Shown: positions 47,914 through 63,158 of the stretch, piece after piece
Position numbering within the stretch: the stretch's first letter is position 1
How the letters are laid out: each line of letters begins with the position of its first letter
NCBI GenBank assembly: GCA_016193315.1
Contig: JACPSJ010000001.1
Coordinates: 727,478 to 791,477 of the forward strand
Length of the DNA: 64,000 nt
Reading direction: 5' to 3'
Source of the DNA: Candidatus Kerfeldbacteria bacterium
GTDB taxonomy: Bacteria > Patescibacteriota > Patescibacteriia > SBBC01 > CAIJZX01
Notes under the pieces: model-generated
Told to the model about the DNA's origin: nothing
What the model saw: the letters and a program-made list of their open reading frames with translations, nothing else
The model's database searches: none
Program-made: the position numbers and the translations under genes

Positions 47914-50900
47914 TTAGGCCCGCGCTAAACCAATATCGGCTTTTTTACCGTCCAGCTCGATGGTGGTTTTGTGGCTGACTCCGTCGAGACTCGGCGACGC
48001 GGTTTTCGCCCGAACCTCTGGCAAAATTCGCTGGGCGTACCGCTCCACCACCTGACCGGCCAACGTTTTAGGCTGCACATACAGGACGATTTGATCGGCC
48101 GGCTTCAGGCCGGCAGTTTTTCGCAAGGCGTTGATCTCACGCACCAGATCACGAACCATCCCCTCTTCTTTTAGTTCATCGCTGACCGTCGTGTCGAGCG
48201 CCACTCGATCAGACGACATCCATTCCTTGCCGGACGGCAGCGACTCGGCCACGTGAATCTCTTTGACGTTCAGTTCTTCACGCACGATCGAATCAAGGTC
48301 AGGCCGGAGCGCGGCCGTCATCACCAATTGCGCCAGCGGTTGTCGTACTTTCAAGCCGGCTTTGGCCCGCAGCGCATGGCCTTGCTCAACGATCTGCTTG
48401 GCCAGCGCCATGTCGCTCAGCAGCCGCGCGTCAATTTCGCCGACCGATGGCCAGTCTTCGAGGTGGACAGATTCTTTGTCACCGCCAACAACGTGGTACA
48501 CATGCTCCGCCAAAAATGGGATGAACGGAGCCATCAGTTTCGACAACTTCCGGAGCACGTGCTGCAGTACGACGCTGGCCACTTGCATTTCATCCGACTT
48601 GAATCGATCCCGGCTCCGCCGGACATACCAGGTTGAAAGATCGGTCACGAACGCGCCAATGGCTCGCGCCGCGCCGGTAATGTCATAGTGCTCTAGACGC
48701 TTGGTCACGTCTTTCGTCAGGACATTGACCATCGAATGAACCCAGCGGTCGAGCGGGTGGTTCGCCCGACCAACATTCGTAGATTCGTAGCTCCTATTCG
48801 TAGGTTCGTAGTTTTTATTTGTAGATTCGTAGAGTTGCCAAAAACTGACTACGTTCATCAAAATCAAGAATGTTTTCTTCACCCCTTCGCCAACAATCTT
48901 CGGGTCAAAGTTTTTCGTGTCCCACGGCTGGTTGGCCGTGTACATGAACCAGCGCAGAGCATCAGCGCCGTGCTTGGCAAACAGCTCGTCCAGATCACCG
49001 TAGTTCTTTAGCGATTTTGACAACTTTCGACCTTGGGTGTCGTTCAGGTGGCCGAGCACCAGGACGTGCCGGTACGATGATTCCTTCACCGCGCCGGCGC
49101 GCTGGAGCAAGGTGCTGATCGCCAACAAGGTATAGAACCAGCCACGCGTTTGATCGATCGCTTCGGAAATGTAGTGGGCTGGATAGCTTCCGGCACCGTC
49201 GATCTGGTTCTTGTGCTCGAACGGGTAGTGCCACTGGGCAAACGGCATGGCGCCGGAGTCGAACCAGGCGTCGGCCACCTCCGGAACACGTTTCATGGTG
49301 CCGTGGTGACATTGCGGGCATGACCATGCCAGACCATCAATAAAGGGCCGGTGGGGATCGAAACTGCCATCCGACTGGAATACCGTGGCCGGAAATTTCA
49401 ATTCGATCGGCCGGCCGTTTGGCACGTCCTCCAGTCGGGTTATGGTCGGCGCCGGCTGCAGGGATAAAGCCCACTCCGTCACCAGAATCGGGTCGGCGTG
49501 GGTGACGATGACAAAGGTTTTTCCTTCGTGCTTGGCATCGAGTTCGCGCAGAAAACTGAGCATCCGCTGACGAATGTCGGTCCACGTTTCTCCCCCGGGT
49601 GGTGCGTCGTGCACCCGTTTCGAACGATCACCGAACGTGGCGTGGAATTCGGCAATCGTTTTTCCTTCAAAAACTGGTCCGATGTGGTACTCGTTGATCC
49701 GTTTGTCCTCGGTCACGGCGATGCCCAGCTCTTGACCAATAATTTCAGCCGTTTGCCTGGCCCGGAGAAACTGTGAGGAGTAGATGGCGTCAATCTTTTC
49801 CGGCTCCAATTTCTGCGCTCCGCGTTGGGCTTGTTTTCTCCCCGACTCAGTCAGGGGACACAAATTTTTGTTGGCTGGTTCGGTGTTGAGCGTATTGTTC
49901 TCGTTGTTCGTGGATCCGCCGTGTCTGACGAAGAAATAGCGATTCCTGGTCGGTAGCCGATCGAGTAAGTCTTGGTAACTGCCGAGGCACTCCTGGTGCC
50001 CACACTGATCACATCGCCAGATCGGCAGCGGCGTCCCCCAGAAGCGCTCGCGCGAAACAGCCCAATCCTTCACCTCTCGCAACCACTCCCCAAAGCGTCC
50101 GGCTTTAATGTGCGCCGGGTGCCAATTGATTTTATTATTGTTCGCGATCAGTTGATCGCGTAGCTTCGACATCTGAATGAACCACGACGTTTTGGCGTAG
50201 TACAGGAGCGGATGTTTGCAGCGCCAGCAGAATGGATAATCGTGGGTGTAGTTCTCAATCTTGTACAACTTGTGATGCTTCTCCAGCCAGTCAACAATCT
50301 TCTTTTGCGTCTGACCTTTGGCATCGCGAACCTCCAAACCAGCCCACGGCTTTACCAACTCGTCGAACTTTCCTTGCAAATCGACGGTGTGGATCGTGGG
50401 CAAGTCAAGTTTCTTCCCCAATTGAAAATCATCTTCGCCGTACATGACTGCGGTGTGGACGACGCCGGTGCCTTCGTCGGTGGTGACGAAGTCGGCGGGC
50501 ACAATAGAATAGGCGTGTTCGTATTCCTGAGCCCACCGGCGAAGAATCTCTGGTGCCGTAAGGCCGGTCGGTTCCAGAGACCCTTCGCTTCGCCGCGGGC
50601 TTCGCTCAGGGATACGGCTCTTCCCTACTTCACGCAAATCCAGAAAATCAAACAGCGGCTTGTATTTCTTCCCGACCAGTGCGGCACCGGAAACGGTTTT
50701 TGCCACCTGCTCCTTCCTGAATCCTAAATCCGGCATTCGGTTCTCGGCCAAAATGTAGTACTCGTCGCCGCGCCGAACCCGGGCATACCGAATCTTTGGA
50801 TCCACAGCTAGCGCCACGTTCCCCGGCAGCGTCCACGGCGTCGTCGTCCAGGCCAGCACAAACGTTCTCGGTTCATCAACTAGTTCGAATTTCACATACG

Positions 50901-51501
50901 CTGCTGGCTCGGTTATCCGTTCGTACCCTTGGGCGACTTCATGACTCGACAGGGCCGTACCGCACCGCGGGCAATACGGCACGACTTTGTAATCCTGAAC
51001 CAACAGTTTCTGATCCCAAATCTGCCTGAAAATCCACCATAGTGTTTCAATGTATTCCGGCTGATAGGTGATGTACGGGTGCTCGAGATCGAGCCAGAAC
51101 CCCACGCGCCTGGTCATCTTCTCCCACAAGTCTTTGTACTTCCACACCGATGCCTTGGCCTGGGCATTGAACCTCTCGATGCCGTACTTCTCGATATCTT
51201 TCTTGCCGGAGATGCCGAGTTCTTTTTCGACTTCTATTTCAACCGGCAGCCCGTGCGTGTCCCAGCCGGCTTTGCGCTCGACACGATAGCCCTGCATCGT
51301 TTTGAATCGCGGAATGATGTCCTTGAACGCCCGGGTTTCAACGTGCCCGATGTGCGGGATGCCGTTGGCCGTTGGTGGTCCGTCGTAGAATACAAAGTCT
51401 CCTTTCGGTGAGGGTTTCGCTAGCGTTTTCTTGAAGATGTCTTGGGCTTCCCAATCCTTGAGAATCTGTTCCTCGAGTTCGGGAAATTTGGGGATGGGCA
51501 T
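47914..51501 (-). CDS. ileS: isoleucine--tRNA ligase with inserted histidine-phosphatase (phosphoglycerate-mutase-family) domain
   Basis: HIGH (PHIGH), KMSKS (KLSKS), CP1 editing domain and C-terminal anticodon-binding region. 1195 aa, versus ~940 aa typical. In-frame insertion at aa ~497-731 carrying RHG and downstream catalytic His of the PGAM/histidine-phosphatase fold (motifs in findings), bracketed by two CxxC pairs. Confidence 0.9.
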   Translation of the reverse strand: MPIPKFPELEEQILKDWEAQDIFKKTLAKPSPKGDFVFYDGPPTANGIPHIGHVETRAFKDIIPRFKTMQGYRVERKAGWDTHGLPVEIEVEKELGISGKKDIEKYGIERFNAQAKASVWKYKDLWEKMTRRVGFWLDLEHPYITYQPEYIETLWWIFRQIWDQKLLVQDYKVVPYCPRCGTALSSHEVAQGYERITEPAAYVKFELVDEPRTFVLAWTTTPWTLPGNVALAVDPKIRYARVRRGDEYYILAENRMPDLGFRKEQVAKTVSGAALVGKKYKPLFDFLDLREVGKSRIPERSPRRSEGSLEPTGLTAPEILRRWAQEYEHAYSIVPADFVTTDEGTGVVHTAVMYGEDDFQLGKKLDLPTIHTVDLQGKFDELVKPWAGLEVRDAKGQTQKKIVDWLEKHHKLYKIENYTHDYPFCWRCKHPLLYYAKTSWFIQMSKLRDQLIANNNKINWHPAHIKAGRFGEWLREVKDWAVSRERFWGTPLPIWRCDQCGHQECLGSYQDLLDRLPTRNRYFFVRHGGSTNNENNTLNTEPANKNLCPLTESGRKQAQRGAQKLEPEKIDAIYSSQFLRARQTAEIIGQELGIAVTEDKRINEYHIGPVFEGKTIAEFHATFGDRSKRVHDAPPGGETWTDIRQRMLSFLRELDAKHEGKTFVIVTHADPILVTEWALSLQPAPTITRLEDVPNGRPIELKFPATVFQSDGSFDPHRPFIDGLAWSCPQCHHGTMKRVPEVADAWFDSGAMPFAQWHYPFEHKNQIDGAGSYPAHYISEAIDQTRGWFYTLLAISTLLQRAGAVKESSYRHVLVLGHLNDTQGRKLSKSLKNYGDLDELFAKHGADALRWFMYTANQPWDTKNFDPKIVGEGVKKTFLILMNVVSFWQLYESTNKNYEPTNRSYESTNVGRANHPLDRWVHSMVNVLTKDVTKRLEHYDITGAARAIGAFVTDLSTWYVRRSRDRFKSDEMQVASVVLQHVLRKLSKLMAPFIPFLAEHVYHVVGGDKESVHLEDWPSVGEIDARLLSDMALAKQIVEQGHALRAKAGLKVRQPLAQLVMTAALRPDLDSIVREELNVKEIHVAESLPSGKEWMSSDRVALDTTVSDELKEEGMVRDLVREINALRKTAGLKPADQIVLYVQPKTLAGQVVERYAQRILPEVRAKTASPSLDGVSHKTTIELDGKKADIGLARA

Positions 51502-60056: not shown

Positions 60057-60460
60057 GGGGATGTACAACAGTTGATCGATCGTTGACAGTCCATCGCGCT
60101 CATGCCGACACGCCCACGCCGTCGTTACTGTGTGGGAACATGAGAAGTGCCAATACACTTTTCAGCAGGCTGAAGACCGCGGTCGCTTCGGCGTTCCGCG
60201 CGCCTTTGCTTGCGCCTGCCTTTGCCTAAACAGTAAGGGCCATCCGTCCGGTTGACTCCGACTAGACCGATCGCGGGTGTCACCTCAGTCGGACCAGTGG
60301 TGAAACGTTCAGACTCATCACCGCGTACCTTCTGAACACCGTCGTCAGGATTCTTGTCCGTTCTTGACCTGATGGCGCGTACTGAGAACGGGCTGAGCAT
60401 GGAAGCCAGCGTGATGGATGGTCCGTCGAGACGCGGGTGCAAGACCCGCCATCTCCACCA
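60057..60460 (+). ncRNA. ssrA: tmRNA (transfer-messenger RNA)
   Basis: 3' end GCGGG-TGCAAGA-CCCGC (T-arm) + CATCTCC + A + CCA (60458-60). 5' GGGGATG forms a 7-bp acceptor with G3:U70 wobble. 5' uugacaguccauc pairs with gauggUccguc just before the T-arm (helix 2). In-frame Ala-rich tag candidate …AFRAPLLAPAFA-stop (stop at ~60227-29). smpB lies 600 nt upstream. Confidence 0.7.
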
Positions 60461-62908: not shown

Positions 62909-63083
62909 ACGGGTATCCAAAGACAGCTTACAGCCTTGTGGCTGAGGGTTGTTTGTAGTGGGCCCGAACCCGCACCAGGCCCTTGACTTGATCGGGGGTG
63001 CGCAGCAATCTCTCCCCCGTGACCCCGTATGGTTCTCGCTTCGCTCGAACCATGGGGCAGGCAAGAGGGCTCGTTTCGCTCTG

Positions 63084-63158
63084 CGGACCCAAGGGGATTT
63101 GAACCCCTGATCTTCTCCGTGACAGGGAGACGTGTTAACCGGGCTACACTATGGGTCC
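63084..63158 (-). tRNA. tRNA-Asp(GUC)
   Basis: Minus strand: GGACCCA-TA-GTGT-AGCCCGGTTA-ACAC-G-TCTCC-CTGTCAC-GGAGA-AGATC-AGGGG-TTCAAAT-CCCCT-TGGGTCC-G. CCA not encoded. Coordinates ±2. Confidence 0.7.

Follow-up and report, generated by a model that had tools for sequence, protein, structure and literature searches.

A histidine phosphatase nested in the second zinc knuckle of a patescibacterial isoleucyl-tRNA synthetase and its relation to a gene found upstream of ileS

Introduction

The histidine phosphatases PhoE of Geobacillus (1h2e/1ebb), mycobacterial GpgP/Rv2419c (4pz9, 6s2q) and PspA of Hydrogenobacter (4ij5) are free-standing enzymes of ~200 amino acids (aa) with a short cap and an Arg-His...Arg...Glu...His residue set. 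Here we describe a domain sharing their fold, size, cap and residue set which is, in contrast, nested in a loop of an isoleucyl-tRNA synthetase (IleRS). It is encoded by the ileS gene in a 64,000-nucleotide stretch of the genome of a Candidatus Kerfeldbacteria bacterium (Patescibacteriota; assembly GCA_016193315.1, contig JACPSJ010000001.1, positions 727,478 to 791,477 of the forward strand), referred to below as the window. Unlike the described enzymes, this phosphatase has relatives that are translationally coupled to ileS, has sequence motifs of its own and reaches no equivalog cutoff. The domain was first proposed in an interpretation of the DNA letters without database searches, termed here the sequence-only reading.

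Canonical type-2 IleRS (IleRS2), represented by the Priestia megaterium enzyme (8c8u) and that of Thermus thermophilus (1ile), has its domain order, HIGH and KMSKS motifs, editing motifs, both zinc knuckles and a DUF5915-type C-terminus in common with the window protein. The two differ in the loop of one knuckle, which has ~7 residues in 8c8u and is ~197 residues longer in the window protein, and in an extra disordered insert within the CP1 editing domain. In the 2023 report of IleRS2 structures the knuckle region is assigned to the connective peptide (CP) insertions, just ahead of the second half of the catalytic core (PMC10485003). An internal extra catalytic domain in a type-2 IleRS has a precedent in the NCBIfam architecture ileS_w_GNAT (NF040702), which occurs in the same lineages of the candidate phyla radiation (CPR), often alongside His_Phos. 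The inserted enzyme is a different one, however, and the window protein scored only 271.6 bits against a cutoff of 1999 and had no GNAT match in Pfam. The Rv2228c-type RNase H / acid phosphatase (NF005567), which the insert matched at 72.9 bits against a cutoff of 326, likewise combines a nucleic-acid enzyme with a CobC/PhoE-like phosphatase, but as an end-to-end fusion to RNase H and not as an insertion into a synthetase. Finally, ATP sulfurylase-pyrophosphatase and similar "product-removal" fusions join a pyrophosphate-releasing adenylyl-transferase to a phosphohydrolase; these use bona fide inorganic pyrophosphatases, whereas such a role for the window domain is speculative.

To our knowledge, aminoacyl-tRNA synthetases are among the most conserved enzymes, and new catalytic domains in their cores are rare in bacteria. 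The sequence-only reading was aware of no synthetase with an embedded PGAM-fold phosphatase, and we found no description of a phosphatase insert or partner in a search of the literature that linked tRNA synthetases, IleRS among them, to domain insertion, CPR/Patescibacteria, PGAM or histidine phosphatase. No literature was found on the ileS_w_GNAT architecture either, and a 2026 survey of IleRS domain evolution makes no mention of a phosphatase partner or insert. In public entries these proteins go by "class I tRNA ligase family protein" or have automatic JGI names of composite form. The partnership between a phosphatase and class Ia synthetases is widespread in these bacteria and appears to be undescribed.

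Results

Position of the insert within IleRS

The ileS product (Table 1) scored 837.7 bits on the NCBIfam ileS model TIGR00392 (cutoff 621.4), the insert notwithstanding. Pfam placed tRNA-synt_1 in two stretches around His_Phos_1, followed by Anticodon_1 (aa 918-1056) and DUF5915 (aa 1100-1194). This confirmed the sequence-only reading, in that a true IleRS has, in frame, after its CP region and ahead of its WFDSG segment, a histidine phosphatase of the phosphoglycerate mutase (PGAM) superfamily (PF00300, E=1.1e-34).

The same reading had suggested an alignment to type 1/type 2 IleRS as a check, and the alignment to the solved IleRS2 structure 8c8u (E=1.7e-223) set the insertion point. Chain residues 294-474 are matched by query aa 328-512, and residues 482-851 by aa 710-1086; the gap between the two segments therefore defines the insert as aa ~513-709, so that ~197 residues stand where 8c8u has a loop of ~7. 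The original span of aa ~497-731 (49400-50015) was slightly wider than this block, since it took in residues of the native knuckle. Two CxxC pairs do bracket the phosphatase, as had been noted, but both are also present in insert-less relatives such as P0047 (handles of this kind are our own) and in 8c8u, and they therefore belong to the synthetase's own second knuckle. Both Cys4 knuckles of the enzyme are conserved (C177/C180/C425/C428 and C497/C500/C728/C731). The phosphatase is thus nested in the loop of the second zinc knuckle of IleRS, which belongs to CP2 and shortly precedes the WFDSG strand.

The length excess over relatives of 955-986 aa is large, as claimed (~210-240 residues), but it is not one contiguous block of ~250 aa; it is made up of three separate segments, namely the phosphatase (~197 residues), the editing-domain insert (~38) and a low-complexity stretch (~20). 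The GC content of the insert was indeed that of its host gene (0.555, and 0.655 at third codon positions, against 0.554 and 0.678 +/- 0.026 in the rest of ileS). An assembly frameshift or chimera, considered from the outset, was ruled out, because two independent Logan assemblies and an NCBI metagenome-assembled genome of Kerfeldbacteria (857-kb contig) encode an identical protein, and because the same architecture is common to 103 of the 119 close homologues.

Catalytic residues and fold of the inserted phosphatase

The insert is a complete and apparently active branch-1 histidine phosphatase, judging from its residues and its predicted structure. The isolated segment scored 124 bits on PF00300 (cutoff 21.7). 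Of the full catalytic signature proposed earlier, R526/H527, R580 and H668 were found intact; the probable general acid, however, is E604 by alignment to PhoE and not the glutamate of the "GGETW" motif (E638). The latter is a conserved motif residue distinct from the general acid and, like R646, is invariant in 103/103 insert-bearing IleRS. When domain copies of all kinds were considered, the arginine of RHG was present in 385/396 and the histidine in 384/396, the remainder being nearly all gaps, and the full catalytic set was intact in 367 of 377 copies. The motifs "N-[RK]-Y-F-x-x-R-H-G" and "H-x-D-P" are signatures of this subfamily.

Structure prediction of the region, a further check that had been suggested, gave a PGAM-like fold: the AlphaFold2 model of knuckle plus insert had a predicted local distance difference test score (pLDDT) of 94.3 and a predicted template modelling score (pTM) of 0.91. 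Foldseek matched it with probability 1.00 to GpgP, PspA, PhoE and cofactor-dependent phosphoglycerate mutases (dPGMs), all of the alpha/beta phosphoglycerate-mutase-like fold. The nearest structures were GpgP/Rv2419c, PspA and PhoE (template modelling score 0.75-0.79, 25-28% identity), with true mutases ranking lower.

These results bear on whether the domain is simply a glycolytic cofactor-dependent phosphoglycerate mutase fused to IleRS, a likeness drawn by the sequence-only reading. That likeness holds at the level of the superfamily, and the best NCBIfam match of phosphatase type was dPGM_arch, at 94.9 bits. Every mutase equivalog cutoff was nevertheless missed by a wide margin (NF038349, 94.9 against 225 bits; NF002339, 31.3 against 316; NF002901, 46.6 against 261). 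The motifs "ERHYG" and "HGNS" and a C-terminal tail are mutase-specific features; the insert has "NEYHIG" and "THADP" in place of the two motifs, and its nearest structures are ~200-aa phosphatases without the tail. We therefore regard a fused glycolytic mutase as having next to no chance of being correct. The cutoffs of the phosphatase equivalogs were missed as well (CobC, 75.4 against 162.9 bits; PspA, 69.7 against 350; SixA, 33.9 against 74.5). Taken with the nearest structures, the missed cutoffs show the domain to be a small histidine phosphatase of its own subfamily and not a phosphoglycerate mutase.

Homologues and the gene upstream of ileS

Homologous IleRS fusions, which the sequence-only reading had proposed to look for, proved common. 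In the 119 closest IleRS homologues the knuckle segment measured 238-299 aa in 103 and 52-68 aa in the other 16. The insert and the IleRS core diverged in step (r=0.87), identity being 43% in the former and 60% in the latter; this and the matching composition bear on the age of the insert. One candidate for an alternative insert, P0083 (1251 aa, no PF00300), was rejected, as it contains an exact internal duplication of ~230 residues and is probably an assembly artefact.

A search with the insert alone of 1.84 billion representative proteins returned 15,766 relatives (1,418 with E <1e-10), of which the best 150 were examined. These were mostly IleRS or fragments thereof, together with ~50 free-standing proteins of ~190 aa at 35-40% identity. 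Nearly all of the long proteins among them (at least ~300 aa) were synthetases of IleRS, ValRS or ArgRS type or fragments of these, the rest being standalone (~190 aa) or tandem (260-470 aa) forms.

GTDB species-representative genomes were then scanned with a family pattern, yielding 317 relatives; the counts below refer to the best 80 loci, which were classified at the level of open reading frames and mostly bore a Patescibacteria label. As the pattern came from an 8-sequence alignment, the 80 loci are biased to the "SHGDPLW" subclade; a diverse 24-sequence alignment gave no conserved stretch. In 43 of the 80 loci a separate phosphatase gene of ~190-200 aa was present, ending -13 to +54 nt from the start of the ileS alignment save in two with a tandem copy between, with a 4-nt overlap of its stop and the ileS start in 21 of 41. 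The phosphatase was inserted in ileS at the same knuckle in a further 23 loci and abutted argS in one. No ileS was seen in the remaining 13, six of which had truncated flanks while seven represented one subclade relocated to a variable context. The usual order around the standalone gene was argS - phosphatase - ileS - recO. P0135 is an example of a free-standing copy: 7 bp separate it from the insert-less ileS that follows, argS precedes it and recO comes after ileS.

The two forms never occurred together in one locus: ileS was uninterrupted in the standalone loci, and none of the 23 insert loci had a second phosphatase copy nearby. The window, too, holds the inserted copy only. Both states are represented among complete Patescibacteria genomes, CP179887.1 having the insert and CP179888.1 the upstream gene. 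Because the upstream and inserted states are mutually exclusive per locus and divergence of the insert tracks that of the core, comparison shows the insert to be the internalised form of a ~195-aa ileS-linked gene which is found directly upstream in most Paceibacteria-type Patescibacteria.

Tandem pairs of phosphatase genes precede ileS in two species (L028:5995-7176 and L075:5998-7180), and single proteins of ~400 aa consisting of two tandem His_Phos domains were also observed (P0124, P0127, P0183, P0213, P0227). An IS200-type Y1 transposase gene (L003:3413-4054) was found directly upstream of the insert-less ileS of P0047, where relatives have the phosphatase gene. This gene and the Y1_Tnp domains in the IleRS P0459 and P0481 may be a clue to relocation of the phosphatase gene. 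In a Gracilibacteria-type genome, a free-standing trans-editing gene of tRNA_edit type (YbaK/ProX-like; L091:8109-8585) begins 1 nt after an insert-less ileS. The CPR-specific architecture was also seen under the labels WOR-3, Pacearchaeota, Acutalibacteraceae, Binatia, Baltobacteraceae or Marinimicrobia (L010, L042, L083, L085; P0054, P0066, P0076), which are probably mis-binned contigs in metagenome-assembled genomes.

Other insertion sites and other synthetases

Related His_Phos copies were located at three IleRS sites besides that of the window (site A), namely A2, just after the second CxxC; B, after "HYPF"; and C, just before the anticodon-binding domain. Up to three copies occur per IleRS protein. 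Proteins with copies at A2, B or C came from Gracilibacteria, Peregrinibacteria and Peribacteria, where a homologue search showed ~90 of the 120 nearest IleRS to carry His_Phos. In one protein, P0445, site B is occupied by a phosphatase of the HAD family, and His_Phos is absent.

The domain was also found in valyl-tRNA synthetases (ValRS) of CPR bacteria. P0265, a ValRS by profile (973 bits on PRK05729, cutoff 704), has the phosphatase at aa 438-602 in the homologous CxxC...CxxC knuckle, and the ValRS of locus L092 (L092:12319-13204, start of a 1337-aa gene) has the same architecture beside an insert-less IleRS. A ValRS fragment, P0122, contains four His_Phos copies.

Weighing a functional tie to class Ia synthetases

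On balance we lean, by a little, towards a functional tie between the phosphatase and class Ia synthetases, as opposed to a gene merely parked beside one. The alternative, in which an ordinary metabolic phosphatase encoded next to ileS was captured in permissive loops of CPR class Ia synthetases, where it is harmless and sure of expression, is a possible but doubtful account. Capture of an upstream neighbour would most easily, in mutational terms, give an N-terminal read-through fusion, yet none was seen at the 43 loci with the upstream gene, while internal insertions recur at four IleRS sites. The domain sits in the homologous loop of two anciently diverged paralogues, IleRS and ValRS, although valS in L092 is not adjacent to a phosphatase gene. 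Multiple insertions have been kept with their catalytic residues intact, the non-homologous HAD phosphatase stands in as a replacement in one lineage, and the host range is narrow, the long proteins among the best 150 relatives being nearly all class Ia synthetases. It is for these reasons that the functional tie is favoured.

Several observations weigh against a functional tie and fit capture instead. P0095 and P0051 are 81% identical and syntenic and differ by a single clean indel of ~200 aa exactly at the insert site, and the P0095 locus has no phosphatase gene; P0047 is a syntenic orthologue without the domain and shows the same pattern, its loop reading "KLGKKLPK" at this point. The domain is therefore dispensable for IleRS function, at least in some lineages, and its clean recent loss or gain has not entailed loss of IleRS. 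In a neighbour-joining tree the IleRS without an insert are interspersed with those that have one, although such trees are rough for event counting and serve qualitatively only. The insert evolves faster than the core. The unrelated housekeeping pair ileS-recO is also kept in conserved synteny in these genomes, and at L003, where the phosphatase is missing, the Y1 transposase gene lies directly upstream of ileS. Fusions to arginyl-tRNA synthetase (ArgRS), with His_Phos at the C-terminus, are rare (three clusters, P0200, P0271 and P0272, among the 120 nearest ArgRS) and follow adjacency, having plausibly arisen by read-through from the argS-phosphatase arrangement; the P0200 fusion (L004:10001-12070) is directly followed by recO. 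Finally, the same loops of Gracilibacteria- and Peregrinibacteria-type IleRS also host GNAT, AAA_33/AAA_18/Zeta-toxin-like kinase and serine hydrolase domains, and the CP1 region of some of these proteins has a DUF559 endonuclease or an IS200 Y1 transposase domain. IleRS with such inserted domains (P0390, P0430, P0445, P0451, P0478, P0481 and others) reach 1859 aa. The presence of unrelated domains in the same loops favours permissive loops as the explanation.

The inserted kinases, together with hosts that are all tRNA-binding enzymes (IleRS, ValRS, ArgRS), raise a more specific role in tRNA end-healing, in which tRNA 3' ends that are damaged or modified by toxins would be freed of a 2'/3'-phosphate (or pyrophosphate) by the phosphatase and could then be charged by the attached synthetase. 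Where His_Phos is combined with AAA_33/AAA_18 kinase domains, as in some IleRS, the pair resembles polynucleotide kinase-phosphatase, and the full-length model of the window protein is confidently packed (pTM 0.86). An action on the end of the bound tRNA that depends on geometry is nevertheless argued against by the variable site and copy number of the phosphatase and by its free form. The median pI of inserted copies is 6.7, near neutral and not basic, which does not support RNA binding, the nearest structures are capped small-molecule phosphatases, and no ligase partner was seen in the loci. We consider end-healing improbable.

The range of enzymes sharing these loops could also be read as self-protection, in which tethered acetyltransferase, kinase, esterase and phosphatase domains inactivate natural-product synthetase inhibitors on site, the phosphatase acting by dephosphorylating an inhibitor or pro-drug. 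GNAT enzymes such as MccE and RimL detoxify aminoacyl-adenylate mimics, and GNAT, kinase and serine-hydrolase domains do occur in the same loops. We know of no IleRS, ValRS or ArgRS inhibitor with a phosphomonoester, however, and none of the other enzymes inserted in these loops is nearly as widespread as the phosphatase. Of the 103 insert-bearing IleRS, 55 have the HIGH motif in its GxHH variant, which is linked to mupirocin hyper-resistance in IleRS2 (PMC10485003), but the window protein has the canonical HIGH. Self-protection is accordingly given very little weight here.

Other features of the synthetase and of the window

By profile and motifs the window protein is a full type-2 IleRS, and aminoacylation is predicted. 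The CP1 editing domain has WTTTPWT at aa 218-224 and the stretch GTGVVHTAVMYGEDD, a motif of GTG-x-VH...G-x-x-D type; residues W218-T224, G344, G346, H349 and D358 do not vary across the family alignment. The C-terminus is of type 2 (DUF5915) and lacks IleRS1's zinc-binding domain. On the exception models for the mupirocin-resistance enzymes MupA and MupB, whose cutoff is 1900, the protein scored 771 and 725 bits; it is a homologous type-2 IleRS but not a member. The full-length AlphaFold2 model of the 1195-aa protein had a pLDDT of 90.5 and the pTM given above, with low confidence only at aa 295-325 and 904-907.

Beside the canonical HIGH motif of the window IleRS, it was observed that the swapped GxHH variant occurs in 10 of the 16 insert-less relatives as well as in the insert-bearing ones. 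The low-complexity stretch STNKNYEPTNRSYESTNVGR falls exactly at the site C loop, where other CPR IleRS have phosphatase or kinase domains, and could be a domain remnant or just a variable loop. Elsewhere the window contains a tmRNA gene (60057-60460, plus strand; Rfam 65.5 bits, not reported by ARAGORN) and a tRNA-Asp(GTC) gene (63083-63158, minus strand).

Table 1. Features of the ileS gene and of the nested phosphatase, in order of residue number. Residue numbers (aa) refer to the ileS product; x/103 denotes conservation among the insert-bearing IleRS.
Feature	Residues	Window coordinates	Strand	Basis or remark
ileS open reading frame, type-2 isoleucyl-tRNA synthetase with nested phosphatase		47914..51501	-	1195 aa
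HIGH signature motif	50-53	51343..51354	-	from translation
~38-aa Arg/Ser/Pro/Glu-rich disordered insert in CP1 editing domain	290-327	50521..50634	-	absent from 8c8u; pLDDT <50 at aa 295-325
First CxxC of native zinc knuckle, CDQC	497-500	50002..50013	-	C497 103/103, C500 99/103; equals "CEGC" of 8c8u
Inserted histidine-phosphatase module	513-709	49375..49965	-	alignment to 8c8u and insert-less orthologues P0047, P0095
Pfam His_Phos_1 (PF00300) match	523-678	49468..49935	-	E=1.1e-34, 120.3 bits, cutoff 21.7
RHG motif (R526, nucleophile H527, G528)	526-528	49918..49926	-	R526, H527 invariant in 103/103
Phosphate-pocket arginine R580	580	49762..49764	-	103/103; aligns to Arg of PhoE "SGRALETAE"
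Probable general acid E604, "INEYHIG"	604	49690..49692	-	against PhoE "LREIHLG"; 96 E + 7 D in 103
Second catalytic histidine H668, "VTHADP"	668	49498..49500	-	103/103; aligns to His of PhoE "IVTHG"
Second CxxC of native zinc knuckle, CPQC	728-731	49309..49320	-	C728, C731 103/103; equals "CPVC" of 8c8u
KMSKS-type motif "KLSKS"	826-830	49012..49026	-	translation; K826, S828, K829 invariant in 75-sequence alignment
Low-complexity, imperfectly repeated stretch STNKNYEPTNRSYESTNVGR	893-912	48766..48825	-	alignment; pLDDT <50 at aa 904-907

Discussion

The insert would act as an autonomous phosphohydrolase with a chemistry proposed from that of its family. H527 would attack the substrate phosphate to form a phospho-histidine intermediate, the phosphate being held by R526, R580 and H668, and E604 would protonate the leaving group. 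The catalytic, editing and anticodon-binding parts of IleRS would be left intact. Since the phosphatase differs in position and copy number and can also stand free, selection looks to have been for co-production at a ratio of 1:1 or higher and for proximity, and not for precise geometry; for the same reason any coupling to the synthetase probably runs through a diffusible small molecule.

With respect to the substrate we can only speculate, and with a good deal of doubt, that it may be a small, diffusible, phosphorylated product of adenylation, pyrophosphate in the first place and a nucleotide phosphate in the second. Pyrophosphate is put first because, among the phosphorylated small molecules that aminoacylation uses or releases (ATP, AMP and pyrophosphate), only its removal would be obviously beneficial. 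No match to an E. coli-type Ppa was found in the 64-kb window, but the window covers only ~7% of the genome. Branch-1 histidine phosphatases are, however, known to us as phosphomonoesterases or mutases and not as pyrophosphatases. Related His_Phos domains were also seen as N-terminal fusions, in some cases with PUA_2 plus ATP sulfurylase and in others with a DUF7178 protein (P0217, P0269, P0270; P0246). These copies have Gln or Pro aligned at the general-acid position; those fused to ATP sulfurylase, with Gln, may form a different subfamily, and on account of that Gln the fusion was given less weight as support for pyrophosphate.

The broader proposal is a tentative one, namely that Patescibacteria may have a dedicated phosphatase partner of class Ia synthetases, present as an upstream coupled gene or as one to four nested copies, and as a HAD enzyme in one lineage. 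Its target would be a phosphorylated product or by-product of the aminoacylation reaction, one example being local removal of pyrophosphate that replaces or supplements a soluble pyrophosphatase. IleRS and ValRS of the CPR would, more broadly, be platforms to which a set of enzymes that modify small molecules (phosphatase, acetyltransferase, kinase, esterase) is tethered.

For annotation, the consequence is that metabolic reconstructions may be treating free-standing copies as phosphoglycerate mutase. Should the phosphatase prove to be a captured enzyme and no more, it would be a natural case of tolerance to domain insertion, useful for protein engineering; in either event its linkage to synthetases informs how whole enzymes become nested in loops of essential proteins. 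Should it clear pyrophosphate or another product, it would represent a new way to drive aminoacylation. The repeated linkage of an intact phosphatase to IleRS, ValRS and ArgRS across a large, poorly understood radiation of minimal genomes offers a handle on a step linked to tRNA charging.

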